In this document: piece by piece, positions 13,331 through 43,362 of the stretch | How the letters are laid out: each line of letters opens with the position of its first letter | How positions within the stretch are numbered: position 1 is the first letter of the stretch | Source of the DNA: a virus | Taxonomy: Duplodnaviria > Caudoviricetes | Strand: one strand, 5' to 3' | IMG/VR virus record: IMGVR_UViG_3300021592_000001 | Coordinates: 1-64,000 of that record | DNA length: 64,000 nt | The notes under the pieces: generated by a model | Database searches by the model: none | Seen by the model: the letters and a program-made list of their open reading frames with translations, nothing else | Told to the model about the DNA's origin: nothing | Made by a program: the position numbers and the translations under genes

Positions 13331-13404
13331 CCTTGTAAACCCTTAAAATAATACAGTTTTTTTGGGTAAGTTTGCTTGCATATTGTTTTATAATATGTTA
13401 TAAT
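13331..13404 (+). promoter_or_regulatory. Sigma70 promoter with conserved upstream box, driving the rimK-polX-ligase operon
   Basis: TTGCAT(13376)-17-TATAAT(13399), extended TG; AAACCCTTAAAAT 39 nt before -35. Confidence 0.8.
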
Positions 13405-13425
13405 ACTACCAGAAAGGAGGCAGCT

Positions 13426-14304
13426 GTGCATATACTTCTGCTAAGCAGCGGAAACGTTTATGGTAACGAAGAAATAGTCGCTTCCCTAAGAAAGCGGGGA
13501 CACGACGCAAAGTATGTCCATCTGTCTTCGATTTTCTTTGATACAGGAGGAGAAACATCGGTTAGGGATTTTGATGACGTTGATGCTGTTCTGGTTCGTG
13601 TTACTGGAAGCTACGCTAAGCATGCGAGACTGATGGCTATGTGGATGAGAAAGAAGAAGAAAATCGTAGTTGATAGCAGGTTAGCGAACTTCCAAGAGCT
13701 TGGGAAAATATATTCGTTGTTCGTCTTGTCGAGTCATGGTATAAGATGCCCCAGGACAGTGCATACAGCTAATCCCAAACTCTTGAAGAAGGCAATAAGA
13801 GAGTTTAAACTGCCTCTTCTTGTTAAACCCTTAGGAGGCAGGAAAGGTAGAGGCATAAAAAAATTTGAATCATACGAATCTGTTCTGAGGTATATATCCA
13901 GGAGAGACAGTAGATTCTTGATTCAGGAATACATAGAGGAGGAGGCTGACTTGCGAGTATTCGTGACAGGCGATAAGGCTTTGGGATGCATGAGGAAAAT
14001 CCCAAAGCAAGGAGAGTTCAGAGCTAACGTTGCGTTAGGGGCAAAGACGGAGGTGTATAATGCAGATGATAGTATTATGAGGCTGGCCATTAGGTCTGCA
14101 AAAATTTTGGGAATACAAATAGCTGGTGTAGACATCGCTATTGACAAGGAAGGAAAGCCCTGGGTACTGGAAGTGAATAGAGTGCCTCAGTTTAAGGCTT
14201 TCCAGAAAACGACAGGCATCGACGTTCCAGACGCTATAGCCGAATATGTCGATGCTGTAGTAAAGAAAGGAGGTGAAAAGTTCTGGTCAGAAGTTGTGAC
14301 ATAA
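13426..14304 (+). CDS. rimK: RimK/LysX-family ATP-grasp alpha-L-glutamate ligase
   Basis: KP.GG..GRG, IQEYI..DLRVFV, EFRANVALG, AGVDI, LEVN..P; GTG start after AAGGAGG. Confidence 0.9.
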   Translation: MHILLLSSGNVYGNEEIVASLRKRGHDAKYVHLSSIFFDTGGETSVRDFDDVDAVLVRVTGSYAKHARLMAMWMRKKKKIVVDSRLANFQELGKIYSLFVLSSHGIRCPRTVHTANPKLLKKAIREFKLPLLVKPLGGRKGRGIKKFESYESVLRYISRRDSRFLIQEYIEEEADLRVFVTGDKALGCMRKIPKQGEFRANVALGAKTEVYNADDSIMRLAIRSAKILGIQIAGVDIAIDKEGKPWVLEVNRVPQFKAFQKTTGIDVPDAIAEYVDAVVKKGGEKFWSEVVT

Positions 14305-14653: not shown

Positions 14654-16300
14654 ATGAAAGTTCCCAATAGCAAAGTCGCTTCACTCCTTAGACAGATTGC
14701 TTACCAATATAAGCAGTCTGGAGACAAATGGAGAGCTATTGCCTACGGTAAAGCCTCCAAGACGGTCAGAGATCTTGCTTATCCGCTGACCGATGTAGAC
14801 ATTTCAAGTCTCAGCGGTATAGGAAGTTCGATAAAAGAAAAGATTGAAGAGATACTGGAAACAGGCAAATCTTCTTTGCTGGAAGAACTGCAAAAGAATG
14901 GTGTGCCTGCGTCTCTTGAAGAGCTAGAGAAGTTACAGGGAGTTGGACCGAAGACTGCAATGAGGTTGTGGAAGGAATACGGTGTTAAGTCTCTCCAAGA
15001 TTTGGAGGAGAATAAGGCTCTTCTCAAAAAAGAGCCTGAAATTGCGGAAGCCTTAGCGCTATATAAGAGAAGAAGAGAAAGGATTCCTGTCTACCTAGCA
15101 GATAAAGCTCTTCAGGAGATTTGTGCAATCCTTCGGTCTGGCGGATGCAAGTTCGTATCTCAAGCGGGTTCTTGCAGAAGGAAAAAGTTCCTCGTTCGAG
15201 ATTTAGATGTCGTAGTTGCTATTTCTGACAGTAAGAAGAATAAATTTATGAAATACGTGAGGAAGAACTTGAAAGTTGTAGCAGGAGGAGAATCTAAGTT
15301 GATATTCGAATATACGGTATCTGGTGAACCTAGGAATGGTGATATTGTTATGGTAACTCCAAAGGAAGCTGGCAATGCTATCAACTATTTGACTGGCTCT
15401 AAGCAGTTCAACATCGCAATGAGAAGACTAGCGCTCCGCAAAGGGTTTACGGTGAACGAACGAGAGACCAGAAGCAAATACAGCGGCAAGCGGATGCCTT
15501 CTGCTACAGAAGAAGACCTGTTTGATGTTTTGGATATCCCGTTCATTCCTCCAGAATGTCGCATAGACGGAACTGAAGTCGGAAAAGACCTTTCAGATCT
15601 GATTACACATGGAAGCGTTAAAGGCGATCTGCATATTCATACTACCTATTCAGATGGACTTATGAGCCTCAAGATGCTGGTTCGCTCTGCTAAGGAAGCT
15701 GGTCTTAAATTTGTAGGTGTAGCAGATCACTCCTATTCGCTCGGCGTGACTGGAGGGATGAAAGCTAAAGATGTGCCACGAATTAGGGATAAAGTTAAAT
15801 CTTTGCAATTTCCCGTCTACTTTGGCGTAGAAGCAGACGTTAAAGTGGACGGAAGCTTGCCTTACAAAAAGAAACTGCTTTCTGAGTTTGACTATCTGAT
15901 TTTAGCTACTCACAGTTCTCCAGACAGGAATCTGGAAAGCAGGCTGATTAGGGCTATAAAGAAAGTTGCTGGAGATAACCGAGTAATATTGGCTCATCTG
16001 ACTAACAGAAAGAGTGACCGTGAAGCGGCTGAAGCTAACTGGGACAATGTCTTTAAGATTTGCAGGAGGTATGATGTTGCTATTGAGATAAACGCTCAGC
16101 CAGATCGTATGGATCCTCCTGCTGACCTTATAAGGCGAGCAAAGCGGTTCGGATTGAAGTTCGTCATCAATTCTGACACTCATGATACAAGCATTAATCT
16201 ATATTGGGGAGTCATACAAGCCAGAAAGGGACTTCTGGAGAACCGAGACGTCATTAATACGTCTCATAAGTCCTTTAGGAAGTGGCTGGAAAGGAGGTGA
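14654..16300 (+). CDS. polX: DNA polymerase X family with C-terminal PHP domain
   Basis: HhH GIG/GVGPKTA, GSCRR..DLD, TGSKQFN; PHP HIHT.YSDG, DHS, NSDTH. Confidence 0.95.
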   Translation: MKVPNSKVASLLRQIAYQYKQSGDKWRAIAYGKASKTVRDLAYPLTDVDISSLSGIGSSIKEKIEEILETGKSSLLEELQKNGVPASLEELEKLQGVGPKTAMRLWKEYGVKSLQDLEENKALLKKEPEIAEALALYKRRRERIPVYLADKALQEICAILRSGGCKFVSQAGSCRRKKFLVRDLDVVVAISDSKKNKFMKYVRKNLKVVAGGESKLIFEYTVSGEPRNGDIVMVTPKEAGNAINYLTGSKQFNIAMRRLALRKGFTVNERETRSKYSGKRMPSATEEDLFDVLDIPFIPPECRIDGTEVGKDLSDLITHGSVKGDLHIHTTYSDGLMSLKMLVRSAKEAGLKFVGVADHSYSLGVTGGMKAKDVPRIRDKVKSLQFPVYFGVEADVKVDGSLPYKKKLLSEFDYLILATHSSPDRNLESRLIRAIKKVAGDNRVILAHLTNRKSDREAAEANWDNVFKICRRYDVAIEINAQPDRMDPPADLIRRAKRFGLKFVINSDTHDTSINLYWGVIQARKGLLENRDVINTSHKSFRKWLERR

Positions 16301-18539: not shown

Positions 18540-18601
18540 TCGGGAGTCAAATCGTTGCTCCCTCCTCTCGGCGGAGCCTCGCTCCGCCGATGCTCCCGAC
18601 T
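18538..18601 (+). promoter_or_regulatory. Structured leader upstream of ligase carrying an anti-SD
   Basis: AGTCGGGAG/CTCCCGACT closing stem, inner TCGGCGGAGC/GCTCCGCCGA hairpin, unpaired CTCCCTCCT; SD GGAGG follows immediately. Confidence 0.55.
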
Positions 18602-18614
18602 GGAGGTTAGTTTT

Positions 18615-19961
18615 ATGTATGGATTTGCTAAGGGAATGTCTCCTGTTGAGAGAGCGTTTAAGACTCTGGACTGTCTGGAAAGGGAGTCAGGCAGGAACAA
18701 GAAGCTTGACATTCTACAGTCAGCTTCCGATAATAAGATACTGAAAACCCTGATAGTGAAGGCTTACGACTGGAGAGTGAGATACGGTATAAGACCGTCT
18801 GTTCGAGTGGGTAAGATTAAGACCAGCTCAGTTTCAGAAGTAAATTACAAAAGGTTTCTGAAACTTACTGACAGATTGGCTAAAGGCTTGTCTGGAAACA
18901 AGGCAATCGCTGCTGTGGATAAATTCTTTTCCAGATGTTCTGACCTGGAAAAGAAGTGGTATTCGAGAGTGCTGAATCGAGACTTGAGAGTAGGATGTGC
19001 GTCTAAAACTTTCAATACAATATGGGAAAACTTGATTCCAGAGTTTGGAGTTCAACTTGGAATACCGTTCGAAAAGTACCTTGAAAAGGGGAAGTTGAAG
19101 TTTCCTCTCTATGTCGAGCCTAAATACGACGGAACACGAGGCGTATTTGTGAAGAAAGGCGATAGCGTGTCCTGTTACAGCAGACGTGGAACTGATATGA
19201 CTGAGATTGTTGATTTTGCAGTGAAGCCGCTATCGAAGGTCATGCCTGACGGTTTGCTGGATGTCGAGTTCCTCGCTGCATGGTCTAAGAAGGACAAGAA
19301 GAAATTTAAGGACGTTTGGTCGAAAACGCAGACGCTGTTGAAGCGAGGGAGGAAGAAGGAAGGCTATGTGGCGGATAAAGACTGGAAGGAATATGTTAAA
19401 AGCAATATAAGAATCATGGCCTTCGACTTGGCCAATCCAGATGTATTTAAATCAAGTAAAGGATACACCGATCAGACACCTCTCAGAAAGAGGAAAATCA
19501 GGCTAAAGAAACTTGTAAAGAAGCTCCCAGAGTTCTCAAGAGCGGAACTCGTTCCTTTCACTAAAGTCTTCAGCAGGAAGGAACTTGATAGATTGTATAA
19601 CAAGTATATAAAGGAAGGATACGAGGGAGTGATGATAAAAGACCCATCATCTCCGTATTCCATAAGCCTTTCTAATTATCGTCCCAGTTATTGGATCAAA
19701 AGGAAGAAGTTTGTGACCAATGATTACAAGATAGTCGCTGTAAATGAAGGTTCTGGAAGACTGAAAGGCACACTGGGATCACTAACGGTATTGAATGAAG
19801 ATGGAGAGAAGCTCAATGTTGGAACAGGACTGAGCGATAAGGAAAGGGATCTCCTCTGGAAAAAGAGGAAATCCTTAATAGGGAAGTATATAGAGGTAAA
19901 AAGGCAGAGTGGTTCTTCCAAAAAGAGATTTCCATCTTTCAGGATCAGAGAAGATAAGTAA
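18615..19961 (+). CDS. lig: ATP-dependent DNA ligase
   Basis: EPKYDG (motif I), EGVMIK, W.K.K, OB-fold VGTGLSD, RFP. Confidence 0.95.
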   Translation: MYGFAKGMSPVERAFKTLDCLERESGRNKKLDILQSASDNKILKTLIVKAYDWRVRYGIRPSVRVGKIKTSSVSEVNYKRFLKLTDRLAKGLSGNKAIAAVDKFFSRCSDLEKKWYSRVLNRDLRVGCASKTFNTIWENLIPEFGVQLGIPFEKYLEKGKLKFPLYVEPKYDGTRGVFVKKGDSVSCYSRRGTDMTEIVDFAVKPLSKVMPDGLLDVEFLAAWSKKDKKKFKDVWSKTQTLLKRGRKKEGYVADKDWKEYVKSNIRIMAFDLANPDVFKSSKGYTDQTPLRKRKIRLKKLVKKLPEFSRAELVPFTKVFSRKELDRLYNKYIKEGYEGVMIKDPSSPYSISLSNYRPSYWIKRKKFVTNDYKIVAVNEGSGRLKGTLGSLTVLNEDGEKLNVGTGLSDKERDLLWKKRKSLIGKYIEVKRQSGSSKKRFPSFRIREDK

Positions 19962-21975: not shown

Positions 21976-23014
21976 ATGAAAATCAACCTTGATTTAGACG
22001 ATCTTGTTCAGTTGAATGAGGAGAGTCAGGAGATGATTGGCGACGCAGTCGCTAAATTCCTGGAGAATAGGCTTGGTTCTACCGATTTCTGCTACAATTA
22101 CTCTGTAAAAGTGGAAATCAATGTCCCAGAGAAGAGGTAAGAGAAATGTATGCGTATTTATCCTACAGGCATGGCAAGCCTCGTATTGAGAAATGTCGCA
22201 CATTTAAAGAGGCTTTACGGAGCTTTCTCTCCGACTTTGACAGCGGAGAGGCCTACGGAATAGGTATCTACGTCGAATGTGACAAAGCTCTGTATCTGCC
22301 TGACTTCAAAGACCGTGAACAATCAGTTTCGGAAGCAAAGAGGTTGGGTTATGAAGTCATGAACGTCTACACTTTTGAAGGAATCGCTGTGTGATTGCAT
22401 ATTTGAAGAGGACACTACTATGAAAACAGAAGAAGCACTAAACCAACTCAAGAACGAAGGTTACACTGTCTTAAAAACTGGCATAAATGACAACGGAGAC
22501 GAAGTGGCTCTACAAATCATAGAGCAAGTCGACGAAAATGTTTATGTCTACCGTTTTGCTAGGAAGCCTTACGTAGATCCAAAAGAACTAAAAGAAATAT
22601 TTATAGGAGAGACTATTGAGGACGTAAGGGACTTCCTTGAGAAAATGAGAACGCACCTCCAAGAGATAAAACGTAAATGGCATCTCATACTTGAGAAAAT
22701 TAGGCATTCTCTAAAGGAGGCGATAAAGGATGATAACGATGATGAAGAAGATATTCGAGAACAAGATCAACAAGGCTATAGACGAGGAAAAACAAATGTC
22801 TAGAGACTTATTCACGGTATTGATGGATTACGACGGGGACTGGAGCATTGAGAAGGAAGGGGGAATCATCAAAATCACTCTCACCAGAAGAGATAAATCA
22901 GTCGTCAAGAAGATCAGCGAGTGTCTTTCAGTGACGCAGATAAACTATCTCAGAAGCAAGCGTTATGTTACAGATCTTGTCAGAGATCTCATTGAGAGGT
23001 TAAAGGGAGAGTGA
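21976..23014 (+). CDS. Four small hypothetical genes (21976-22140, 22146-22394, ~22420-22803, ~22739-23014)
   Basis: SDs and coupling. Confidence 0.5.
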
Positions 23015-23018
23015 GTCT

Positions 23019-24092
23019 ATGAGAAATTTAACTGTGGTAGTCGGGGGACAGTTCGGTAGCGAAGGAAAGGGAAAGGTAGTCGCACATCTATGTCGAAATT
23101 ACAGATTTGATGCATGTGTGAGAGTAGGAGGACCGAATTCAGGACATACTGTCACTCTGAACGGTAGAAGGACAGTCCTAAGACAAGTCCCTGCTGGAGT
23201 AGTGAATCCTCATACGCAACTCTTTATAGCGAGTGGATGCTTGGTGGATCCTGAAATTCTACAAAGAGAGATTAAGATGCTAGGTCTGTCGCCAGACAGA
23301 CTGAAGATCGACAGAAACGCAAGTCTCCTGGACAGGTCTGACGCTGAATTCGAGAGAAGAATTGGACTTGAGGGTAGAATTGGTTCTACAGCTACAGGAG
23401 TTGGCTCTGCGGTTATCAAGAGAATCCTGAGGAAAGACAGCAGTATCATTCTCGAAAAAAGGATTGATGACTATCCTTTCCTTATTCCGTATCTTGCTGA
23501 CGTCTCCAAGGAGATTAACCGTCTGTGCGATGCGGGGAAGAGCACGGTAATCGAAGGAACACAAGGCTTCGGTCTATCCCTTTACCATTCTTCTTATTAT
23601 CCCTTCGTCACAAGCAGAGATGTAACTGCTTCTGGTTTTCTGAGTGAAGTCGGAGTTAGTCCCCTGCTTGTAACAGACATTATCCTTGTCATCAGAACAT
23701 TTCCTATCAGAGTAGGAGGGAATTCTGGAGACCTTCCTAATGAGATTGACTGGGAAACAGTCAGAAAGGAAAGCGGTTATCCTCACGAAATTAAGGAGCT
23801 TACTTCTGTCACAGGTAGAGTTCGTCGAGTTGCACGACTTGATATCGGTCTCGTGAAGAAAGCTGTTCAGATTAACAGGCCGACTTTTATTGCTTTGATG
23901 GGAGTCGATTATCTTGACTTTAAGAACAGAGGAGTGAGAAGTCTTGAAAGTCTCTCTTCTAGGACTCATGACTTTATTACTTCCCTTGAAAGGGAAACGG
24001 GTATCCTCGTATCTTTGATAGGGACTGGTCCGAGTGACTTTGAGATAATTGATCTAAATGGGAGAAGCAGAAAAGGAGGGAAAGAAGTATGA
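23019..24092 (+). CDS. purZ: PurZ0-type N6-succino-2-amino-deoxyadenylate synthetase (adenylosuccinate synthetase homologue of the Z-base pathway)
   Basis: GGQFGSEGKG (Ser replacing the PurA catalytic Asp), IRTFPIRVGGNSG, ELTSVT.RVRR, and Asp retained in LMGVDY (GTP-type); short archaeal-like 357 aa. Confidence 0.85.
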   Translation: MRNLTVVVGGQFGSEGKGKVVAHLCRNYRFDACVRVGGPNSGHTVTLNGRRTVLRQVPAGVVNPHTQLFIASGCLVDPEILQREIKMLGLSPDRLKIDRNASLLDRSDAEFERRIGLEGRIGSTATGVGSAVIKRILRKDSSIILEKRIDDYPFLIPYLADVSKEINRLCDAGKSTVIEGTQGFGLSLYHSSYYPFVTSRDVTASGFLSEVGVSPLLVTDIILVIRTFPIRVGGNSGDLPNEIDWETVRKESGYPHEIKELTSVTGRVRRVARLDIGLVKKAVQINRPTFIALMGVDYLDFKNRGVRSLESLSSRTHDFITSLERETGILVSLIGTGPSDFEIIDLNGRSRKGGKEV

Positions 24093-24770
24093 AATACAAT
24101 CTCGGGAAAAGATTCAGGACTCCATTCTCTTTCCTTAAAGAGAAATCAAAGGCGATTATGTATCTGCTCTCAATCATAGAGCAGAGGCTGCTGTCAGATT
24201 TTCCTTCCGAGGCAGAATCTATAAAGAGGATTTTCAGAAGGCTCTATTCTACACTGCGAGCCTATTCAAGAGGGAAAGGAAAGTCTCCAGGGATAGAGTG
24301 GGAACATATAAAAGCAGCTGCCGATAATTCTCAGATCGCTATTGACAGGTGCATTCGCTGCTTGGAGAATGACTTCTCGCTGGAAGGGATAGAAACAGTT
24401 TTGGATATTCTTCCTTTAGGACCAGATTGTTGTCCGTTCTGTTTGAGTAAGGTCTCCTGTAGCGAGTGCGGATACGCTACCTTGCACAAGAGATGTGGCG
24501 AAGCAAATTCGTCGATAACGAAGTTATATGAAGCTTTAGGTGATTTAAAAGGCAAGATTCACAATCTTAAACAAAAAGGAGGCAAGAATGAAAAAGACAA
24601 AAGAGAAGAAATCTATCAAGGTCATAGCCAAGTATGAAAGAGACACGAAGCGGTATCACAGGTTCTCCTTCCGTAAGGAGAACGGTTCTGATGTAGTGTC
24701 TGGAACTATCTACTTTTCCAAGGATATGGATATTCCAGACAAGGTGATTTTGAACACTAAGGTAGAATAG
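24089..24770 (+). CDS. Two hypothetical genes (24089-24637 with Cys cluster; 24588-24770)
   Basis: CCPFC..CSEC..C; SDs. Confidence 0.5.
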
Positions 24771-24781
24771 AAGGAGGGAAA

Positions 24782-25183
24782 ATGAGTGAAATTATGGACA
24801 GACGAAAATTCCTGAAAACAGCACTTACGGTAGGTGCATCTGTCCTGTTTGATCTCCCGTCGCTTTTTGACTATCTCAAGGCAGAGGATGGATACAGAGA
24901 ATCCTTGCGTCAGATCAACCACTTTGTTGCAGAGGAGCTTGAAAAGATAGTCTATAGCTTTGAAATGAACGATAGCCGTCTCAGGTCAAAATTACGTGAC
25001 TCCATAAGTCGTAAGCTCTCACAGATGAAGTCGGAAGGAAAGCTGATTGATTACCGTGTGATTTGTGATGAGACTAACAACACGCCAGAGGTGATAGATA
25101 ATCACGGATTGGTTGTAGACGTTATTGTAAAGATATCTTCAGGATATCCTTACTGCAAGGCGACATTCTCAACATTGAGGTGA
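24782..25183 (+). CDS. Stand-alone tail-sheath C-terminal-like domain preceded by twin-arginine-like signal
   Basis: MDRRKFLK.. hydrophobic; FEMND..LR ... DYRVICDETNNTPEVIDN..LVVDV.VK. Confidence 0.7.
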   Translation: MSEIMDRRKFLKTALTVGASVLFDLPSLFDYLKAEDGYRESLRQINHFVAEELEKIVYSFEMNDSRLRSKLRDSISRKLSQMKSEGKLIDYRVICDETNNTPEVIDNHGLVVDVIVKISSGYPYCKATFSTLR

Positions 25184-25189
25184 TTGACT

Positions 25190-25498
25190 ATGCGAATACT
25201 ATATTCAAAAAGAGGAACTGGTAAGACAAGAGAGGCAATCTCGATCGCTTCCAAGACATCTTCTCATATAGTCTGTGAAGGGAAGAAAAGAGCCTCTGAA
25301 GTCTTTTCCATGGCAAAGGAGATGGGAATGGATATTCCATTCCCACTGACCTATGATGAGTTTGTAGAAGGTAGGTTCTATGGCATGAGCGTAAAATCAT
25401 TTGTCATTGAAGATGTTGACCTGCTGATTCAGAGGTTCGCTCGAGGCATTCCAGTCAAATTAATAACTATAACAAGGGAGGGAGAAGATCATGAATAA
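25190..25498 (+). CDS. Small degenerate P-loop protein
   Basis: RGTGKT; VIEDVD. Confidence 0.55.
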   Translation: MRILYSKRGTGKTREAISIASKTSSHIVCEGKKRASEVFSMAKEMGMDIPFPLTYDEFVEGRFYGMSVKSFVIEDVDLLIQRFARGIPVKLITITREGEDHE

Positions 25499-25838
25499 AC
25501 CGTCCAGTCAAATATTTCTATTTAACGCATGGGTTGATAATACCAATTATCTCCTGAACAAAGATTTACTTAAGATGAAGGCTGTCCGTTTTTGCAGAGA
25601 TGTCGGCTTGACTATAGTCTCTACGGATGAGTTTGTTTTCCCTAAAACTTCAGGCATCACTATGACGTTCATCATAGCTGAGTCAAGTCTATCGATTCAT
25701 ACATGGCCAGAAATGAACTACATTCGCATTGTACTGGATTCATGCAAAGCCTTAGAACCTTTGGAGGTATCGGAATCCCTTCGCAGGAACTTTGAAATTC
25801 CTGCAGAGCGATCTGATTTGAAAGTAATTTTATGGTAA
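25491..25838 (+). CDS. Pyruvoyl-dependent S-adenosylmethionine decarboxylase (SpeH/class 1b) homologue; substrate uncertain
   Basis: IIAE|SSLSIHTWPE self-cleavage motif and downstream catalytic Cys (DSCK); His after ES replaced by Ser. Confidence 0.85.
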   Translation: MNKPSSQIFLFNAWVDNTNYLLNKDLLKMKAVRFCRDVGLTIVSTDEFVFPKTSGITMTFIIAESSLSIHTWPEMNYIRIVLDSCKALEPLEVSESLRRNFEIPAERSDLKVILW

Positions 25839-26279
25839 GTGACCATGAAGGGGAGAAGGAAAGAAAAATACTATCTGAAGGCTTACTTCAAGCCTTTCGA
25901 TGTCAAGAAGACTGCTAGATTTGTCAGGAAGGTGAGGAAGAAGCTAGGTCTTTCGCAAGGAGAACTTGCAATCCTATTCGGCAGGGCAAGGTCTACACTT
26001 TCCAAGTGGGAGAACGGTCAGGCTATTTGTCCTGGAGACATAATTCTAGGTCTTCAGGACTTGGTTAAGATGGTAGAGAGAGGGGAATTTAAAATAAAGC
26101 GTAAGAGCCATAAGCTCAAGATCGTGGACGAGCGAAGGAAGATTGAAGAGGAAGAGGAAGAGGAACTGGAAAGTGTAGAATCTGTCCTGGAGAGAAAGTC
26201 CTTGGAAGAGGAAGAGGAAAAGGAAGACTTGGAGGTAGAAGAGTATATTGAAAGACTTAAGAAGGGAGGTAGTTTATGA
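25839..26279 (+). CDS. XRE/Cro helix-turn-helix regulator with acidic tail
   Basis: RKKLGLSQGELA..FG.ARSTLSKWENG..P. Confidence 0.85.
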   Translation: MTMKGRRKEKYYLKAYFKPFDVKKTARFVRKVRKKLGLSQGELAILFGRARSTLSKWENGQAICPGDIILGLQDLVKMVERGEFKIKRKSHKLKIVDERRKIEEEEEEELESVESVLERKSLEEEEEKEDLEVEEYIERLKKGGSL

Positions 26280-26674
26280 AATCACTTCTCGTGTCTCTAT
26301 TGTTTGTGACTGGGATAAATCTGGCTGGATCGGACGGGAACATGATTCCGTGGCCGAATCTGGTTGGAGTTGGGATGGCTGTATTGTCAATGTTAATAAT
26401 GGATGATGGAGGGGAAATCGAATGAGACAGGAGTACTCTGTAGATGAATGGAGATCGATCATTCAGAGGCTGTTAGACGTGACACACCTGATTCTACAGA
26501 AAAAGTATAAGTTTATTGCAGAATGGAACATAATACCGAATGCTGTCTTCATACCATATAAGATGCTGCCTGAAAAGGTAAAAGAATTGGAGATAGCTGA
26601 ATTGAGTGTCGTTATAGGCTATAACATAGACGACATACACGTCGGGTTGATTTCTTAGAAAGAGGAATTCCATA

Positions 26675-27736
26675 ATGGATTGTGATTACAGTCCTATATT
26701 CCAGTCCAAGACCAAAGAGAGCGATATCTACGACGAGTTTGTCGAGTTTTCGAATCTGCAGTATGCTACACTTGACTACGATCCGTTCCATCCGATGCTT
26801 GTGAAGCTGCAAGAGAACCTGGAGGAAGAGGAATCTCTTTGGATGTCAACATTGTATATGGCTTTCTACAACATAGGCTCTTGTTACTTTGCGTTTCTGA
26901 GGAATCCGAAACCTCTATCGGAACTGGATGATGTTCTCGGGAAGCTTCCCATCGGATTACAGAGAAGGAATCTGAGGGGTGGTGAGGTGATAAAATACTT
27001 CCACCGCTTCAGGAAGAAGGTAAAGCCTTATGGAAGTATCAAGAACTTTCTGACTCACAACTTTACAGGTTCTAAGGAGAAGGACTGGTTCATACTGTTA
27101 AAGAATTTGAACTCTGTCTGGGGTAATGGCAGATGGGCATCTTTCACTCTTGGAGAGATTTTTCAGAAGGTCAACAAGTTGCCTGTGCTCCCGACAGATA
27201 TAATGAATGAAAACAGTAGCGGTCCGAGGACAGGACTGGAACTGTTGATGGGAAAGGCGAAAGGAAAGACCAAAAAGGAGAAGCTGGCAGATCTGAAAGC
27301 TAAGGCCGACGCTCTCTTTAGGATGGTTCGTCCGAGAATTAAGACGAACATATTCTACCTTCCTAAGAATCATTATGACTATGGTATGATGGAAAGTCAG
27401 TTATGTGACTTTAATTCTATGACTAAAGGTCTCTACTATACAGGCAGAGACATAGATCGGGATCTGGAGCGTATAATAAGAACGCTGAGGGTCGCAGCTG
27501 ATGTTGGAATAGATATAAGACCAGCGAAGCGACTGTGGGAGATAAGGAGGGAAGTGTTCCCCTCCGAGCTCCTTGGAGAACTACATGGATGGTATAAGAG
27601 ACATACCTATGCAAAGAAGTTCTACAAAAACTTCGGGATAATAGCTAAGAGTCACAAGGAAATACGTGACTATCTTGGAATATGGAGAGAGGATAGACTA
27701 GATGACAGGAAGAAAATTGCTAGGGGATTATGGTAA
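26675..27736 (+). CDS. Amino acid:DNA transferase (aGPT-PPlase clade 2 / ADDT), thymidine hypermodification enzyme
   Basis: DYDP, RRNLR, GNGRWA, SSGPRTGL, ESQLCDFNS..G.YY.G.DID, W..R...FP..LGE motifs. Confidence 0.85.
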   Translation: MDCDYSPIFQSKTKESDIYDEFVEFSNLQYATLDYDPFHPMLVKLQENLEEEESLWMSTLYMAFYNIGSCYFAFLRNPKPLSELDDVLGKLPIGLQRRNLRGGEVIKYFHRFRKKVKPYGSIKNFLTHNFTGSKEKDWFILLKNLNSVWGNGRWASFTLGEIFQKVNKLPVLPTDIMNENSSGPRTGLELLMGKAKGKTKKEKLADLKAKADALFRMVRPRIKTNIFYLPKNHYDYGMMESQLCDFNSMTKGLYYTGRDIDRDLERIIRTLRVAADVGIDIRPAKRLWEIRREVFPSELLGELHGWYKRHTYAKKFYKNFGIIAKSHKEIRDYLGIWREDRLDDRKKIARGLW

Positions 27737-28952
27737 CCTACTCCACGAAGTTCTATCCAGGACGGATATGAAGATTGAAATAAATGACGGGAAGAGAGTG
27801 AAGAAAGTTTGCGTAATAGTAGGTTCTTCACGCTCAGGTTCGTCATTACTGAAGAGAGTTCTGAGCAACAGCTTTGACGTGGTATCCCTGTCAGGAGAGG
27901 AAGAGCCTTTCTACATCCTGTCTAGGAATGGATTCTCATTTTCCAGTGACAGCGATAGTTTCAATTCAATTAGGAATGCTGACCTTATCCATAAGTTGTT
28001 TTATAATGACTTTAGTGTTAGAGATACTAAGATTAGTTTGGAAGATATCTCGTTTAGATGGAAGAATAGACTGCTTCTGCAGCTTCCTCGGTTTATGATT
28101 GATGATTGTTTTGTTAGTAAAGTAGATGAGCTGTTGAAGAACGTTTACGATAAGTTCGAGTCAGATGAGAAGTCCTACGAGCTCAAGTCAGCAATCTTCA
28201 TAAAGAAGCTTCTCGGGAAGAGAGCTGGTTATTACGATATTATTGCTTCCAATTCAGGAGTTACATTTGAGGAGACATTCAAAGTAGAAGAGCCTCCGTT
28301 CGTGATCCCCCCATTCGGAAGGATGTTCAGAGAGAGCGAGGACTTTGACAAGGTCTTCTTATTCAAGACACCTCAAGACTGCTATCGGATTGGGATATTC
28401 GAACAACTCTATCCCAATGCAGAGATATACTACGTATGTCTCCTTCGTAACTACGCCTCTGTAGTTAATGGGTTGATGGATGGATGGCTGTGCGATTATG
28501 GATTCTTTGCTCACAATCTAAGCATGCACGGGGAATGTCTAGACATAGATGGGTACACGAATGTGAAGCCGTACGGAAAAATATGGTGGAAGTTTGATCT
28601 ACCTCCGAACTGGCATCACTTTAAACGAAAGCCCTTGTTAGAAGTTTGCACCAATCAGTGGGTTTCGGCCTACCGCCATATAATTGATAATGTCGTGAGA
28701 AGGAAAAAGAATCATCTAATCGTCAGGTTCGAGGACTTTATTCTTAATCCACAAGAGCAGACAGATAGAATAACTGAGTTCTTGGGTATATCACCTATTG
28801 TAGTACATGACTTACCATTAGTAATGATCACGGAGACTCCGAAGCTAAAACGTTGGAAAAAGCGAGAGGATCTGCTGATTCCTCCTCCAGGAGAAGTAAT
28901 AGATATAATGGAGATACTAAGATATGACTTGGACATCGAAACTTGGCTATGA
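27702..28952 (+). CDS. PAPS-dependent sulfotransferase-fold protein
   Basis: 5'-PSB loop IVGSSRSGSSLL, LFKTP, 3'-PB LLRNYASVVNG, IVRFEDFI.NP...ITEFLGI. Confidence 0.85.
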   Translation: MTGRKLLGDYGNLLHEVLSRTDMKIEINDGKRVKKVCVIVGSSRSGSSLLKRVLSNSFDVVSLSGEEEPFYILSRNGFSFSSDSDSFNSIRNADLIHKLFYNDFSVRDTKISLEDISFRWKNRLLLQLPRFMIDDCFVSKVDELLKNVYDKFESDEKSYELKSAIFIKKLLGKRAGYYDIIASNSGVTFEETFKVEEPPFVIPPFGRMFRESEDFDKVFLFKTPQDCYRIGIFEQLYPNAEIYYVCLLRNYASVVNGLMDGWLCDYGFFAHNLSMHGECLDIDGYTNVKPYGKIWWKFDLPPNWHHFKRKPLLEVCTNQWVSAYRHIIDNVVRRKKNHLIVRFEDFILNPQEQTDRITEFLGISPIVVHDLPLVMITETPKLKRWKKREDLLIPPPGEVIDIMEILRYDLDIETWL

Positions 28953-29841
28953 CCCACACTGTCCGAAGGAGGGAGAATTCTATTGTGACAGTGAATGGGG
29001 TGAGCTTCAAGTTGTTCTGCTCCTGTTTTTGAGTAAGGATGCGTTCGAGGCAATCGGAGATAACTATAAAGATGCTATGTTCATTTCCAAACCGAATTAC
29101 GAATTGGTTATGGAAGAGTTCTGGAACTATGTTAATCTTCTTAAGAAGCTGGGTATCAGAGTTCTTGTTCACGAAGTTGATGAATTCTTCCCCAACATAT
29201 TTTATGCGAGGGATCTGGCTGTCATAACACCAGACGGACGCTGTATTCTTGCGAACCCAAAATATAGGATCAGAAAGGGGGAAGAGAAGGTTTTATATAG
29301 GATTCTTCTTTCTACCTATAATAGTGATGAAAGGAAGTATATTTTTGCTCGCAGCACAATGGAAGCGGCAGATCTGTTCTGGTTGAACAACAGATCTGTT
29401 ACAGTTTCCGTGGGCAATAGAACTTCGCCCAAGTTCGCTGACGAATTGAAGACTCTATATCCAGACCTGGAAATCCGACTGTTTGAAGCACTGCCAGAAC
29501 AAGTTCCTCAACATATTCTCGGTCATAAACATATCGTTTCTCATGACTGTATAATTTTGAGGAGTGAGTTAGGAGGCTGTGAAAGTCTGGGATTCAAAAA
29601 AATTATCCATTTGAAGGAGAATCATGAAGTCGTCAATAGATTCTCTATGAATATTGTAACTATCGATTCTTATGAGATAGTGATGCCCGATGGGTGTGAA
29701 GAGACGAAGAGGATTTTTGAGTCTCATGGGATAAGATGTCATACCGTCTATATAGAAGAAATACTGAAAATGGGAGGAGGACTGGCATGTATGACATTAC
29801 CTCTAAAGAGGAAAGAGTATTTCCTTAAGAAAGGAGGGTAA
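28924..29841 (+). CDS. Amidinotransferase / arginine deiminase / DDAH (pentein) family enzyme
   Basis: PNIFYARD, R.GEE, MEAAD, GNRT, His (QHIL), C-terminal GGGLACMT.P catalytic Cys. Confidence 0.9.
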   Translation: MTWTSKLGYDPHCPKEGEFYCDSEWGELQVVLLLFLSKDAFEAIGDNYKDAMFISKPNYELVMEEFWNYVNLLKKLGIRVLVHEVDEFFPNIFYARDLAVITPDGRCILANPKYRIRKGEEKVLYRILLSTYNSDERKYIFARSTMEAADLFWLNNRSVTVSVGNRTSPKFADELKTLYPDLEIRLFEALPEQVPQHILGHKHIVSHDCIILRSELGGCESLGFKKIIHLKENHEVVNRFSMNIVTIDSYEIVMPDGCEETKRIFESHGIRCHTVYIEEILKMGGGLACMTLPLKRKEYFLKKGG

Positions 29842-29844
29842 ACT

Positions 29845-32149
29845 ATGGAAAGAGAATGCCTAAACTGTGATCGACCGTCTGACCCTAAGTACACAGTGTT
29901 TGTATATGAGACACCGTGGGACGACATAGAGGTGGAGAAGAATTTCTGTAGTAAGGAATGTCAGGAGGAATACTTGTATTCTGGCGACTTCTCTTACTTC
30001 TTCTGCGACCGCTGTATGAGAGAAATATGTACCCAGAATCCTGGGAACGGATGGCATATACAGTATCGAGATCACGGTGGAGATACTTTGTGTCTGAAAT
30101 GCTACCAAGAGGTGATACTTGAAAACGGAGTGGAAAGAGATAAATTTGAGGAAGGACGTATTCCAGGGATGTTCTTCTCTTATGGCAATGAGGAAGCTGT
30201 CGAGGCTGGTTATGTAGAAGTGCCTGGATTTTCCAATTTCTATATTCACGATCAGAGTACAGTAGACAGGTTCTGTGGTAAAGCTTTAGAGCTAATTGAC
30301 AAGGGTCAGAAGGTGATCGTAGCGTATGAAAGGATAGCTATAGGCGGAGGTGAGGGTTACGTAACTTTGATGACGAAATCAGGAGAGAACAGATGAGCGA
30401 TTTGAAAAGGCTTTTAGTGTTTAACGTTGACGGTAAAAAGAAAGAATTAGAATTCGATTTAGATCTTAAAACTGGCAAAGCTGTAGTTGATTTTAATGAT
30501 CTGCAGAACTTATTGGACAAGATTTCAATGTATCCGTTTGAATATAAAGTTATAAGTGTTTCAAAATAAGAAAGGAGGGATTGGAAGGTAGAAATGAACG
30601 AGTCTGCCAATGCCAAATATATTCTATTTGTAGATAATCAGTCTGAAGTGTCAAGGGAGTTACTGGAAAAGATAGATAGAATAAGAAACGAAGTCTACGT
30701 GGTGGATGTGTCAGATCCAGAGTTCGGATGTCTATATGATTTTATAAGAAAGTTCAGCCCTACTAAGTATAAAATACCTCTACTGTTTTCCGCACGTGAC
30801 CTGAGAGTTGTTGACGATATACATGAGGAAATCTCTAAGATTTTGGGAAAGGAGGTTCTCAATGAAAGTTGAGATAACGTCTTTTGACAGGAATACGGGC
30901 GAAGCTCGTTTGCAAGAAATCGATATTTCTAATCTCTATTCTGTTAAATTTATCACTGCTGCAGGTAAATTGTTCGACATTTCCTTCGTTGATGAAGGAA
31001 ACAGTATCCGCATCAGAGAGGCTAGTGGTTTCTCCTCTGGAGTGACAGTTCTTCCAGAGGCAAATAATAGTATTATTGTTAAGTGATAATATCATTTGAA
31101 GAAAGGAGGGTATTGTGGAAGCTAGAGATGTTGTCAATAAAGTAACAGATTATCTAAACGTTCTTGGAGATTCTGAGAGAATAAGAGATTTTGTTCTCGA
31201 GATGGAATGTCAGCATAGAACTCTTCAGCAGGGATTTACTCGTCTTTGCATTGCATGGTTAAAGAGACTCGCTGACCCTGACTTTATGTTCGATGACAGA
31301 AATAAGGCAAGTGTAGAACTGGCTAAGCGTTTGAAAGAATATTTGGACAATGCTTATTTACCCTTAATTTAGGAGGAAGCAAGATGTCTTCCTTTGAGAC
31401 AAATTTCGATGGTCTTCTTATAGAGCCAAAGGGGCGAAGACTACTAAAACTGCTTATGTGGATGCTCAGGAATGGTATAGAGTATTACGAGGATCGTGAA
31501 ATTAATTTAGGGAAGGGAGGATCAAATGACGGTTCTGCAGAAAAGGAATAGCTTTGAAGACTACTTTGAAGATGATGTAGAGTATCCTGATTCCTGCATG
31601 ATGGTCGACGATATACTGCCAAGAAATGTGATGCTGAACTACGTATCATCTAGCTTTCTGAATGGTTTTATAAACTACGTAAAAATAATTCGTGTTTGGC
31701 TACTACGAAGATATACTCTTCCCTCCTCGGAGGAGGGAGAATATACAATCTCAATTGCGAAAGAAGATAAGACTGCTATAGAACATCTCAGTCAGGCAAG
31801 TCTTGTAAGTGACGACGGGTACTGGCTGGAGTATAGTTTTACCTGTTTTGATGACTTTATTAAGGCATGGTTAGAATCTGATCACTTTCATGTCAAGTTT
31901 AGTGAGCTGCACGATGATGTAGTTGTTTTGGCACGTTCTGCGTCTCATTACTGGTTCTTCTGGTTTGATCTCGATTGTTCGGATTGCAGTGTGGGGCGGT
32001 TTCAGACGGAAGATCCCGAAGATCTGGTTATTGAGAAATTCGACCAGTACGTGAGAGGGATTCAGTATTCAGAAAACAAACACTATCAAGAGAAGGCAGA
32101 CCCGATATTGATACCCGTTGAAAAATTAAAGGGATGGTTATCGTCCTGA
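29845..32149 (+). CDS. Hypothetical genes (29845 Cys-rich; 30393; 30594; 30862; 31115; 31526)
   Basis: SDs; 30862-31086 paralogous to 10116. Confidence 0.5.
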
Positions 32150-34388: not shown

Positions 34389-34970
34389 ATGGAAGGGTAT
34401 AAACCACAGAGAATAAGAGTAGCAATATCTGGTCCTCACGGTGTAGGTAAGAGCACTCTTGCAAGGAGAATTGCTGACGAGCTCTGTATATGGTATATAC
34501 CTGAAGTCGCAAGAGAACTTTTGGATAAAGCCCGAGACAGGAATTGGAAGGAATTTAGCGCTGAAGAGGCTTGTGAGTTTGAAAAAGCTATAATCCATTC
34601 GCATCTGTTCTACATAAAGCAAGCTAATCGGATGAACACAAGCTTCGTATCCGACCGCAGTGTCTTTGATGCATTTGGCTATATAGATTGGCAAGAGGAA
34701 TGTCGGGGTATGAAATTGGGTATAAATTACCATCGTATTAAGATGAGAGATTCTTATCTACCTTACATAGATAAGATTCTATTTTTTAAGTTCAGAGAAG
34801 AAGATAATCCTGACGAATCACAATGGTGGTTCCAGAACAGACTCGAAAAATTTTTCTCTTTCGACCCATTCCCTGATATCGTTGTTGAGATTGACAGAAA
34901 GACAGAATTTGAGGAAATTATTAGAATAATAACTTCAACAGGAAATTCATACCAAGCTCAAAAGAGATAG
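34389..34970 (+). CDS. P-loop nucleotide kinase (AAA_28/NadR-like)
   Basis: GPHGVGKSTL, IPEVAR, SDRSVFD..Y. Confidence 0.8.
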   Translation: MEGYKPQRIRVAISGPHGVGKSTLARRIADELCIWYIPEVARELLDKARDRNWKEFSAEEACEFEKAIIHSHLFYIKQANRMNTSFVSDRSVFDAFGYIDWQEECRGMKLGINYHRIKMRDSYLPYIDKILFFKFREEDNPDESQWWFQNRLEKFFSFDPFPDIVVEIDRKTEFEEIIRIITSTGNSYQAQKR

Positions 34971-37177: not shown

Positions 37178-38086
37178 ATGATAAAATCTGTTTTAGTTGT
37201 CGGAGATGTAATGCTAGATACCTATATTATAGGGGAAGTCAACAGGCTCTCTCCTGAAGCTCCAGTTCCTGTCTTGAGAGTGACCAGAGAACTTAATTAT
37301 CTTGGTGGAGCAGCAAATGTTGCAAGGAACTTAAGAGAATTGGATATGGACGTCACACTAGTTGGCTTAATTGGAAAAGATAAAACGGCAGACACTCTCC
37401 TTAAATTGCTGAACAAGTATGCAATAAATAATTTATTATTGAGCAAAGAGGAAGTCATAACAACTCGGAAAATCAGGCCGATGACCAATTATGGCAAAAC
37501 CCAATTACTAAGGATAGATGAAGAAAATGCAGTTAAAGTTAATATTGACGAAATTGCGGATGAAGTCAAGAAAATAGCTGCTAAATCTCAATTCATAGTA
37601 GTTTCAGATTATGCAAAGGGGGTAGTTACTCCATTGCTGATGCGGATGGTAGATTCTGTAAATGTTCCTATCGTATTAGATCCAAAACCGATAAATTCTG
37701 AAATATATAAAAAGATGAAAAATATAATGGTTTCAACTCCGAACACATCCGAACTGAAAGCTATGACTATTCACCCAACTACATATTCAAAGTATGTTTT
37801 TGAAACAAAAGGACCTGAAGGGATATGTGTTCATCGTAAAAATAAGAGTTCTTTCATAGTAAAACCTGAACGAGTTGAAATCTTCAATGTTATAGGAGCA
37901 GGAGACGTCGTAACAGCAGTCGTAGCCAAGTGTATTTCTGCGGGGATGACAATTGAGAAAACTGCTGCAATAGCATGTGCTTGCGCTTCCAGAGCGGTTA
38001 CAGAACCATGGACTGCTATAGTTGACAAATCACATTTCTATAACGTCTCAAACGAATATAAAGAAATGGAAACATGGGAAGTTTAA
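37178..38086 (+). CDS. RfaE/HldE domain I-like heptose-7-phosphate kinase (PfkB family)
   Basis: VVGDVMLD.Y..G.V.RLSPEAPVPV, GGAANVA.N, SDYAKG, DPK, TPN, GAGD. Confidence 0.9.
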   Translation: MIKSVLVVGDVMLDTYIIGEVNRLSPEAPVPVLRVTRELNYLGGAANVARNLRELDMDVTLVGLIGKDKTADTLLKLLNKYAINNLLLSKEEVITTRKIRPMTNYGKTQLLRIDEENAVKVNIDEIADEVKKIAAKSQFIVVSDYAKGVVTPLLMRMVDSVNVPIVLDPKPINSEIYKKMKNIMVSTPNTSELKAMTIHPTTYSKYVFETKGPEGICVHRKNKSSFIVKPERVEIFNVIGAGDVVTAVVAKCISAGMTIEKTAAIACACASRAVTEPWTAIVDKSHFYNVSNEYKEMETWEV

Positions 38087-38128: not shown

Positions 38129-38917
38129 ATGAAAGTTAATGTAGTTTATGCAAAGTCGTTCTTTGGCCTCGACGAAGTTGAAGATGATTCCGTAGATTTG
38201 ATTTTCGCTGATCCTCCATACGGAATTTCCAAGGATACATTACTATCCAATCCACAGATTGGCTACGAACCAAAAAAGGGAAACTGGGATTTAGTCAGCA
38301 AAGAGTATCTAAAAGAATTTGCGGAACACCTCGGAGCTGATGCCTTGCGAGTACTGAAGCCCAGCGGAAGCATAGTCGTGTCGGGAGTATTCGGCTCCCT
38401 TAGGCCATATTTTGCGAATTTTGTATCTCTCGGTTTTAAGTTTCGTCATCATATCGTATGGCACAAGACGAATCCTGCTCCCTCGGTGCACCGTAGATCC
38501 TTTGTTTATTCCAACGAAATTTTATTATGGTTCAGTAAGACAAATAAATGGTATTTTGATTATGATTTATCGAAAACATACAACAAAGGTAAGCAGCTTC
38601 ACGACGTATGGGACATTCCATCTGTCAGAAAACAGGCAGGAGTTACAAGGAAACCTAAGGAACTGATGGAGAGAATCGTTAGAATTCTCTCCCCGGAAGG
38701 AGGGTTAGTTCTCGATCCTTGTGTCGGTTCAGGAACGACTATCGAGGTTGCTAGAAAATTCCGCAGAAAGTTCGTTGCCTACGAAATAGGCAACGAACAG
38801 CTCAAACTACTAAGGAAGAAGAAATTCAATGTGGTAAATCACAAAATAAAGGTTCGTCTGAGACCGAAGATGAGAAAGAGAGGAGTGAAACTCAAACACT
38901 TCCACTTTTGTGATTGA
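38129..38917 (+). CDS. DNA amino-methyltransferase, beta class
   Basis: DLIFADPPY ... KP..LMERI ... VLDPCVGSGTT. Confidence 0.9.
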   Translation: MKVNVVYAKSFFGLDEVEDDSVDLIFADPPYGISKDTLLSNPQIGYEPKKGNWDLVSKEYLKEFAEHLGADALRVLKPSGSIVVSGVFGSLRPYFANFVSLGFKFRHHIVWHKTNPAPSVHRRSFVYSNEILLWFSKTNKWYFDYDLSKTYNKGKQLHDVWDIPSVRKQAGVTRKPKELMERIVRILSPEGGLVLDPCVGSGTTIEVARKFRRKFVAYEIGNEQLKLLRKKKFNVVNHKIKVRLRPKMRKRGVKLKHFHFCD

Positions 38918-38925
38918 GGATAAAG

Positions 38926-39516
38926 ATGTTAAGAGTAAAGAAGAATAGAATGGATCCCGACAATTACAATAGTACATTCAAAAATTGGCCGCCTTTGGTA
39001 AGATTTGGTCGCTGGGTCTATGGTATTTGGATAATTGGTAATAATTATAAGTCAAAAAAGAAGTACTATGGTGAATATCCGCCTACTTATCTGAAAAGGA
39101 TAAAGGCTCTTTTTCCTAATGCTCGGAATGTTCTCCATCTTTTCTCTGGTGTTGTTGAAAAGGGATTGTGGTCAAATGAGGTTACTCTAGATATTAGAGA
39201 AGAATTGAACCCAGATATCTGCTGTGATGCTGAAGAACTGAGCAAGCATGTAAGGGGTAGTTATGATCTTATTTTGGCTGATCCACCTTATTCTGGAGAA
39301 GATGCAGCTCATTACGGACGGCCTTTGATAAATAGGTTTAAAGTAATAACCGAGTGCGTAAAAATCTTGACCTCTGGCGGGTATTTGGTTTGGCTTGATC
39401 AAGTTTTTCCGATGTTCAGAAAATCTGAATTAAAATTGATTGGCACAATAGGTATAATCCGTTCGACTAATCATAGAGTTAGAACAGTATTTGTGTTCAA
39501 AAGGTTTAAAAGGTAG
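38926..39516 (+). CDS. Small DNA amino-methyltransferase-like protein
   Basis: YYGEYP, LHLFSG (motif I), DLILADPPY. Confidence 0.8.
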   Translation: MLRVKKNRMDPDNYNSTFKNWPPLVRFGRWVYGIWIIGNNYKSKKKYYGEYPPTYLKRIKALFPNARNVLHLFSGVVEKGLWSNEVTLDIREELNPDICCDAEELSKHVRGSYDLILADPPYSGEDAAHYGRPLINRFKVITECVKILTSGGYLVWLDQVFPMFRKSELKLIGTIGIIRSTNHRVRTVFVFKRFKR

Positions 39517-39526
39517 TAGGAGAAGA

Positions 39527-42898: not shown

Positions 42899-43362
42899 AT
42901 ATAACTGTAGAAGAGGAAGCATTGGAGGTATTTTATGAATCCTAGTTATAAAATACTTTTTGAGGAAATAAGTAAGGCTCAGATGAAACTAAATCAGTGG
43001 AGCCGTAATTTTCGTCTTGAGATATTAGGTTTCGCATTGCAAGGTGAGAAAGTCGCTGTTCTTGTGAAAAGAACGCCTCTACCTGGAATTATGGAAGAAG
43101 AAGACGATGACCGCTAAAAATCGAACCAAATGCAAATACGGAGGGATAAAATGAATGTATTAAAAGAATTACAAACTATGATGCAGGTAATACAGAAGGA
43201 ATATGGGGAATGTGAACTATCTATCCGTGTTAAGACGGATGCAATTTCATTCGTCGTCGTTAAAAGGGAATCAGACGGGACAACTATCACGGTTGATATC
43301 AGTTGTCCTGTGAACAAGTTAGGAGGGAAAGAGAATGTCCATTAAGGGGGGGTGTATATTAT

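Follow-up and report, generated by a model that had tools for sequence, protein, structure and literature searches.

A probable thymidine-hypermodification gene cluster and a solitary PurZ-type synthetase gene in one gene block of an uncultured jumbo phage

The window analyzed here covers the first 64 kb of a 188,322-bp IMG/VR virus record (hereafter the record; label G000) of an uncultured jumbo phage from hydrothermal-vent metagenomes, and within ~7 kb on one strand it carries a PurZ-like gene, suggestive of 2-aminoadenine (Z) synthesis, and a cluster suggestive of thymidine hypermodification. This raises the question of whether both bases of the A:T pair are altered in this phage, as the original prediction proposed. 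In our view, the DNA most likely contains hypermodified thymidine, while its adenine remains mostly canonical or is replaced by Z in part, and we give a probability of roughly 55% to the reading that the two gene sets are independent modules, one producing hypermodified thymidine and the other a solitary PurZ-type synthetase that would provide partial Z at best or serve another role. We infer all of the chemistry, as well as the state in which the DNA ends up, from homology and gene context. The main genes are listed below with their coordinates, strand, product length where given, and profile matches; the four genes on which the prediction was built were found at exactly the positions it gave, all on the forward strand.

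23019-24092, + strand, 357 aa: short PurZ-type adenylosuccinate-synthetase homologue (Ser14, GTP-type; PF00709 Adenylsucc_synt 1.5e-53; phrog_1211 7e-73)
25491-25838, + strand: small pyruvoyl-dependent decarboxylase of the AdoMetDC/SpeH family, candidate tailoring enzyme (PF02675 AdoMet_dc 5.6e-15)
26675-27736, + strand, 353 aa: amino-acid:DNA transferase (AADT / aGPT-Pplase2; PF18724 ADDT 1.5e-15; 58 bits, cut-off 26.2)
27702-28952, + strand, 416 aa: sulfotransferase (Sulfotransfer_3, PF13469 1.6e-12), candidate activator of 5-hydroxymethyluracil (5-hmU) or tailoring enzyme, with a 35-nt overlap with the AADT gene
28924-29841, + strand, 305 aa: DDAH/arginine-deiminase-fold guanidino-group-modifying enzyme (PF02274 5e-10; PF19420 8e-9)
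43303-44028, + strand: divergent, C-terminally short thymidylate-synthase (TS) homologue, candidate dUMP hydroxymethylase (PF00303 53.8 bits)

The PurZ-like and AADT genes are 2.6 kb apart in one co-directional block. What stands of the original prediction is that both gene sets are real, intact, and located on one strand of one contig, and that thymidine is probably hypermodified; its full Z pathway and its proposed decoration of the Z amine are not supported, for the reasons given below.

The thymidine side is well supported by these sequences, much more strongly than the Z side. The AADT carries an ESQLC motif whose Glu240 and Cys244 are invariant in an alignment of the window protein, four relatives, and the characterised M6 gp51. 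In M6 gp51 and ViI gp247, mutation of either the Glu or the Cys abolishes activity, and the mechanism involves attack of the Cys on C6 of a 5-substituted uracil (PMC8989533). The enzymes encoded around the AADT also look competent from their aligned residues. The decarboxylase matched the Thermotoga maritima AdoMetDC (1.3e-6) with the Glu-Ser self-cleavage site (AESS, corresponding to ESH), the His, and the catalytic Cys aligned, and the DDAH-like enzyme matched the Pseudomonas aeruginosa DDAH (2.4e-9, residues 52-292) in a full-length alignment that pairs the nucleophile Cys of the two (GGGLACMT, corresponding to GGVSCMS). The sulfotransferase, which has 620 homologues, the best of them 40-48% identical over the full length, contains the sequence GSSRSGSSLL at residues 41-50, which we take to be a 5'-PSB-like loop binding 3'-phosphoadenosine-5'-phosphosulfate (PAPS).

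A supply of 5-hmU is suggested by genes elsewhere in the record, and these, together with the gene neighborhoods of related loci, strengthen the predicted thymidine hypermodification. The 188 kb contain no TS-family gene other than the TS homologue, which matches profile positions 108-218 of 266 only (the C-terminal core) and ends early; it still has its catalytic Cys in PPCL and, in FPANLAA, the Asn that specifies uracil. No Tet_JBP domain was found in the record. The DNA polymerase (898 aa; record positions 177912-180608) is a fusion of an N-terminal UDG domain, a 3'-5' exonuclease, and PolA, the same architecture as in the UDG-fused family-A polymerases of the SPO1, SP-10, SP-15, and YerA41 phages, where it has been linked to genomes with 5-hmU or hypermodified T and to the use of PolX and a ligase for repair (PMC13697223). 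Both of these partners are also phage-encoded here, and a gene for a kinase like thymidylate kinases lies further downstream:

14654-16300, + strand: PolX (pol beta-like) with a PHP domain, putative base-excision-repair partner for the UDG-PolA fusion (DNA_pol_B_thumb, HHH_8, PHP)
18555-19961, + strand: ATP-dependent DNA ligase (DNA_ligase_A_M 1.4e-22; OB_2)
34389-34970, + strand: P-loop kinase like thymidylate/dNMP kinases (AAA_28 1.3e-13; phrog_761 and phrog_2107, "thymidylate kinase")

By sequence, the polymerase was closest in the PDB to Klenow and Taq, and its UDG domain to stand-alone prokaryotic UDGs (TM0511, 4ZBX); structures of YerA41/phiLo or DpoZ polymerases were absent among the best 60 of 61 matches.

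The known system of the M6, ViI, PaMx11, and PhiW-14 phages comprises a dUMP hydroxymethylase, a kinase acting on 5-hmU in DNA (5-HMUDK), the aGPT-Pplase2/AADT, and tailoring enzymes (PMC8989533). With these phages and the Tonitrus-type Tet/JBP variants (PMC11955845), the window's phage shares the AADT Glu/Cys pair, a TS-family hydroxymethylase candidate, and tailoring enzymes clustered with the AADT. It differs in having no 5-hmU DNA kinase and instead a sulfotransferase, a DDAH-like enzyme, and a decarboxylase of the pyruvoyl rather than the pyridoxal-phosphate type, none of which PMC8989533 mentions; the terms "sulfotransferase", "amidinotransferase", and "arginine" each have 0 occurrences in the text of PMC8989533.

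The nearest viral relatives of the AADT (41-50% identical) lie in T-hypermodification clusters with two kinds of neighborhood. In three records (G001-G003), the AADT is accompanied by both 5-hmU-kinase domains and a TS homologue, as in the locus L003 (AADT, HMUDK_HMUD1, HMUDK_hel at 8.7e-38, and a TS homologue). In two others (G004 and G005; loci L006 and L007), a Tet_JBP gene is followed by sulfotransferase-like, ADI-like, and AADT genes. The 5-hmU DNA kinase (PF18723, PF18748) is absent from the window's record, from G004 (100% complete), and from G005, so that across six AADT records the kinase and the sulfotransferase/DDAH-like (ADI) pair are mutually exclusive (3 vs 3). This exclusivity supports sulfation as the activation step and, given that no 5-hmU DNA kinase is present, the sulfotransferase is probably the activator. 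The same pair occurs on two phage-like contigs (L149, 6001-10739, and L150) with E-values of 3e-113 and 3e-66 against the window proteins; after it come genes for a 303-aa protein matching no family, a kinase of the APH/protein-kinase fold, and a TS homologue, an arrangement that may represent another variant of pyrimidine hypermodification. On a cellular Rhodoferax sp. contig (L151:2927-7988), the genes for a sulfotransferase 42% identical to that of the window and for an arginase-family enzyme are translationally coupled, and an APS kinase is encoded close by; the coupling suggests that this sulfotransferase family works with guanidino-processing enzymes. As a separate observation, L003 encodes a 481-aa membrane transporter (CitMHS/Na-sulfate symporter-like; L003:6665-8110) between the AADT and 5-hmU kinase genes.

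On the Z side, the protein encoded at 23019-24092 is by fold a member of the PurA family, matching the Pyrococcus horikoshii PurA (1.5e-65) and the structure 7VF6 (2e-45), and it retains all 35 columns that are invariant in the homologue alignment. Its P-loop (GGQFGSEGKG) has a Ser in place of the catalytic Asp of PurA (D13 in Escherichia coli), aligned to S14 of the phiVC8 PurZ. The residues F12, S14, T262, W252, and P233 and the GGNSG loop are common to the phiVC8 PurZ, the Ghobes PurZ0, and the window protein, and roles in the PurZ active site have been described for F12, S14, T262, and W252 (bioRxiv 10.1101/2025.10.22.683976). The sequence PIRVGGNSG retains the two-residue insertion, and position 262 is a Thr, as against Gly or Ser in the Asp-type archaeal PurA sequences. 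At the donor site, the Asp of GVDYLD is kept and position 295 is a Gly, without the F295/Y298 pair of the ATP-using PurZ. These residues predict a GTP-type, dGMP-specific enzyme, which is the functional meaning of "PurZ0", and make the protein a candidate synthetase of N6-succino-2-amino-dAMP from dGMP and Asp.

The name PurZ0, under which the gene was first predicted, therefore holds by residue pattern (Ser14 and the guanine-reading Asp) and fails by clade. Common to the window protein and the actinophage PurZ0 (Gordonia phages Archimedes and Ghobes; PDB 7VF6) are a short archaeal-type PurA fold, Ser for Asp, F12, T262, W252, the GGNSG loop, and the guanine-reading Asp, which implies a GTP donor. 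However, the two are only about 37% identical, whereas 119 metagenomic proteins are 54-65% identical to the window protein; at the Asp position, these near relatives have Gly in 87 cases (one of them found by eye) and Ser in 32. Among the best 150 representatives at 50% clustering, the same position was Ser in 121, Gly in 4, and Asp in 3. In a maximum-likelihood tree (a quick tree with a midpoint root), the window protein fell within a 20-row clade of its near relatives (99% SH-aLRT) with a Gly-type sister group; the Ghobes PurZ0 and phiVC8 PurZ were placed elsewhere, and the window protein was not monophyletic with the actinophage PurZ0. As an aside, many of the Ser-type representatives (P0183, P0186, P0201, P0203, and others) are longer proteins of 500-560 aa with an N-terminal extension of ~120-215 residues.

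The contigs of seven members of this clade were viewed, and in six the PurZ-like gene is flanked by genes for an RNase_H_2-domain protein of 515-551 aa and a protein with the DCD fold, in the order RNase_H_2, PurZ-like (Gly or Ser at the Asp position), DCD, and sometimes a deoxynucleoside kinase (dNK); the seventh (P0074) has no cassette partners within 10 kb. Genes for a deoxynucleoside kinase, PurB, or PfkB are often found near the cassettes, and purB or purE adjoins some of them. Housekeeping genes of archaea or bacteria surround some cassettes; others lie near integrases, PIN toxins, and helicases. The cassette is not described in the literature that we searched, and PADLOC contains no model for it, nor for the PurZ-like, AADT, sulfotransferase, or DDAH-like proteins. 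The loci are as follows:

L015:508-4170, cassette
L017:8382-12323, cassette
L019:8348-12598, cassette
L021:1708-5404, cassette
L022:1445-5618, cassette
L023:8377-12070, cassette

The window protein is nested among the cassette members, and the Gly/Ser-type substitution is common to both. It differs from the closest sisters in having Ser rather than Gly, and the phage has the synthetase only: BLAST and profile searches found none of the cassette partners (RNase_H_2, DCD, dNK) in the 188 kb of the record.

The usual partners of Z synthesis are likewise missing from the record, which has no terminal repeats, is 73% complete by CheckV, and comes from a phage of about 250 kb. Genomes with PurZ0 always have DutZ and usually DmtZ, together with a DpoZ-1 polymerase (PMC12884076), and none of the three was found in the 188 kb. 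More broadly, no MazG/MazZ, DCD, Lyase_1 (PurB), dUTPase-fold, DUF550, or NDT domain was detected there, and BLAST against the partner proteins of phiVC8 and Ghobes gave nothing like DatZ, DutZ, or DmtZ. The polymerase gene is ~155 kb from the PurZ-like gene and gave a weak BLAST match to DpoZ (1e-3) in addition to its UDG fusion. One generic HD-domain protein is encoded on the minus strand (record positions 76863-77504); an Atlas search returned "HD domain" only, it did not match HD_3/YfbR-type profiles or DatZ, and its single-sequence AlphaFold model, made with no homologues found for an alignment, was unusable (pLDDT 32.5). Where the original prediction had a full Z pathway, only the synthetase is thus present, from a clade of cellular cassettes, with no dATP-clearing or dGTP-to-dGMP enzyme in the 188 kb.

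Incompleteness of the record does not simply account for this, because four of the six large-phage records that are at least 90% complete and have the most similar PurZ-like genes likewise lack both a dUTPase-fold and an HD_3 protein. Solitary PurZ-like genes are thus a recurrent feature of complete large phages, in contrast to the 46 of 80 viral PurZ-like loci with a DutZ-like gene within 10 kb. In E. coli, an incomplete Z-cluster led to lower Z substitution, and most polymerases accept dZTP (PMC8342488), so that partial Z is possible in this phage; complete replacement of A by Z is unlikely.

The pairing of the two modules is unusual, as shown by a survey for co-occurrence of purZ0 and ADDT such as the original prediction had suggested. 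No PurA-family gene was found in any of the 48 viral records with this AADT clade (11 of them at least 90% complete), and no ADDT-family gene in any of the 80 with a PurZ-like gene (29 at least 90% complete), while the same search recovered the ADDT gene in the window's own record as a positive control. With no second case in these 128 related viral records, the modules travel separately, and their meeting here is singular rather than a conserved two-part system. Full-text literature searches found no paper reporting PurZ together with thymidine hypermodification, in keeping with the premise that Z-genome and T-hypermodifying phages are treated as separate strategies.

Under the reading of two independent modules, the TS homologue would convert dUMP to 5-hydroxymethyl-dUMP and, after phosphorylation, 5-hmU would be put into the DNA in place of T by the UDG-fused PolA. 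The hydroxymethyl group would then be activated in the DNA, probably by the sulfotransferase using PAPS, and the AADT, via its Cys/Glu mechanism, would put an amine or amino acid in place of the leaving group. The DDAH-like enzyme and the pyruvoyl decarboxylase may tailor the adduct, for which a guanidino-bearing, arginine-derived group is our guess. The PurZ-type synthetase would have been captured from the cellular RNase_H_2-PurZ-like-DCD-dNK cassette and would carry out the GTP-dependent conversion of dGMP to a dZMP precursor, from which the host PurB and kinases could feed some dZTP; in view of the missing dATP clearance, Z would at best replace part of the A.

Several points weigh against this reading. 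The assignment of the TS homologue as a hydroxymethylase rather than a methylase is inferred only. The sulfotransferase may be a tailoring enzyme instead of the activator, as the APH-type kinase beside the L149 pair and the arginase partner in Rhodoferax would suggest, and the sulfotransferase/DDAH-like pair may prepare or tailor a guanidino-bearing side chain. Genes for Z partners or for a 5-hmU kinase could lie in the unrecovered part of the genome, the HD-domain protein could be a dNTPase, and the close spacing of the two modules in one co-directional block could mean that they are functionally linked after all.

The first alternative is that the genome is doubly modified, with the PurZ-like enzyme and host or unrecognised phage enzymes replacing most A by 2-aminoadenine, and Z pairing with hypermodified T. 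An intact PurZ-type active site, the shared gene block, and the presence of an HD protein of unassigned role would all fit. The two modifications are also chemically compatible, as the extra amine of Z lies in the minor groove and C5 adducts lie in the major groove. In a metaGPA study, the UDG domain showed a statistical association with dZ-modified contigs (bioRxiv 10.1101/2025.10.22.683976). Set against these are the missing enzymes (DatZ, MazG/MazZ, DUF550, dUTPase-fold, DCD, NDT, and PurB), a polymerase that is only weakly DpoZ-like by BLAST and has the UDG-fusion architecture of T-modified phages, and the origin of the PurZ-like protein in the cassette rather than in the Z-phage lineage. 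A methyltransferase of the N6-adenine type, also encoded by the phage, counts against this alternative as well:

38129-38917, + strand: DNA methyltransferase with a DPPY motif at residue 28 (N6-adenine type; PF01555 4.5e-41)

A second methyltransferase of the N6_N4 family (39491-40330; SPPY, N4-cytosine type) lies 0.6 kb from it.

Palindrome composition, scored against a Markov expectation over the whole 188 kb, bears on the same alternative. Observed-to-expected ratios for 4-bp palindromes were 0.31 for those of G/C only, 0.85 for those with two A/T letters, and 0.93 for those with four, and the strongly avoided sites included CGCG (0.05), CCGG (0.11), and GTAC (0.50). Depletion of G/C-only sites is as expected if A:T-containing sites are protected, and it is to this extent in favor of a doubly modified genome. 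However, modification of T alone explains the pattern equally well, since a modified A and a modified T would look alike in it. Strong avoidance also persists for some A/T-rich hexamers (GTATAC, 0 observed vs 43.6 expected; CATATG, 4 vs 32.4) and for GGTACC (0 vs 8.8). Taken together, we consider a doubly modified genome unlikely. Its most specific form, in which a large share of A is made 2-aminoadenine by a cassette-derived PurZ-type enzyme without the usual helpers and is paired with T bearing a new adduct installed via sulfate rather than phosphate activation of 5-hmU, is in our view slightly less probable still.

A second alternative is that only T is modified and that the PurZ-like enzyme, taken over from a cellular conflict cassette, serves to manipulate nucleotide pools or to counter cassette-bearing hosts. 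The conserved RNase_H_2-PurZ-like-DCD (-dNK) operon that holds the nearest relatives (54-65% identical) is cellular and in some cases lies by integrases, PIN toxins, and helicases; the phage record has none of the partner genes, and lone copies recur in complete large phages, all of which would agree with such a capture. Against it, PADLOC has no model for the cassette, and the dGMP-pocket residues predict PurZ chemistry, in which case any dZTP formed would be incorporated by ordinary polymerases (PMC8342488). We regard this explanation as likewise unlikely.

A third possibility, raised for the Z amine in the original prediction, is that the AADT, sulfotransferase, and DDAH-like enzymes act on the 2-amino group of Z or on another non-thymine base. 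Gene proximity is all that speaks for it, and it conflicts with the AADT mechanism, which needs addition of the Cys to C6 of a 5-substituted uracil (PMC8989533) and whose motif is kept in the window protein. In addition, one phage whose record is 100% complete carries the same trio along with Tet/JBP and lacks a PurA homologue, and in all relatives the trio is tied to a TS homologue or to Tet/JBP, making this explanation very improbable.

Least credible of all is an assembly chimera of two viruses, a concern for any metagenome-assembled contig without end repeats, given that GC content and GC skew are smooth over the junction, that a second assembler's contig spans it at uniform depth, and that three other samples contain pieces of each module at comparably low depth. 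This second contig, a 27,964-bp Logan contig from run X1, covers 22300-30400 at an even depth of 19.4 with one difference from the record, although run X1 is probably the source sample, so that the contig is independent only in its assembler. The three other vent or sediment runs (X2-X4) yielded short, low-depth fragments of the PurZ-like gene and of the AADT/sulfotransferase genes, and outside the probable source sample no contig bridged the PurZ-like gene and the AADT. The region as a whole is uniform, with all genes from 4 kb to 50 kb on the forward strand and steady GC content and skew, and is not obviously chimeric. As a minor variation, a contig from run X2, another vent sample, differs at 22380-22788, skipping 407 bp and having 10 other letters instead, which takes most of a small open reading frame (22375-22803) just upstream of the PurZ-like gene.

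If both modules operate, a single base pair would be changed in its minor and its major groove, with consequences for how such DNA evades restriction, for the stability of the duplex, for packaging, and for why standard sequencing chemistries fail on it. Even without Z, a T-hypermodification cluster with a sulfotransferase/DDAH-like pair and no canonical kinase, and a lone cassette-type PurZ-like gene in a jumbo phage, are both worth biochemical follow-up.

Two further genes lie within the block that holds the PurZ-like and AADT genes:

24089-24637, + strand: 182-aa Cys-rich open reading frame with CxxC-type clusters, overlapping the stop codon of the PurZ-like gene (ATGA)
25839-26279, + strand: helix-turn-helix (Xre-type) DNA-binding protein between the decarboxylase and the AADT (HTH_3/HTH_31, about 4e-7)

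For the former, searches of Pfam, PHROG, and PADLOC gave no significant match. No cultured phage matched 20000-32000 by megablast, related-locus searches with the PurZ-like protein alone and with the polymerase gave no close viral relatives, and a promoter and terminator scan of 22000-30600 was no better than with shuffled sequence.

Elsewhere in the window, an early-gene block encodes a RimK-type ATP-grasp ligase (13372-14304) and a PfkB kinase (37178-38086), neither linked to the findings above; the latter was considered as a ThiD-like hydroxymethylpyrimidine or nucleoside kinase and rejected, its best structural relative by sequence being the heptose-7-phosphate kinase HldA. Finally, a 133-aa open reading frame (24782-25183) resembles phage tail sheath proteins in their C-terminal domain only (phrog_23, 1.8e-14); its neighbors are genes of nucleotide metabolism, and it lies a long way from any tail module that the window shows.

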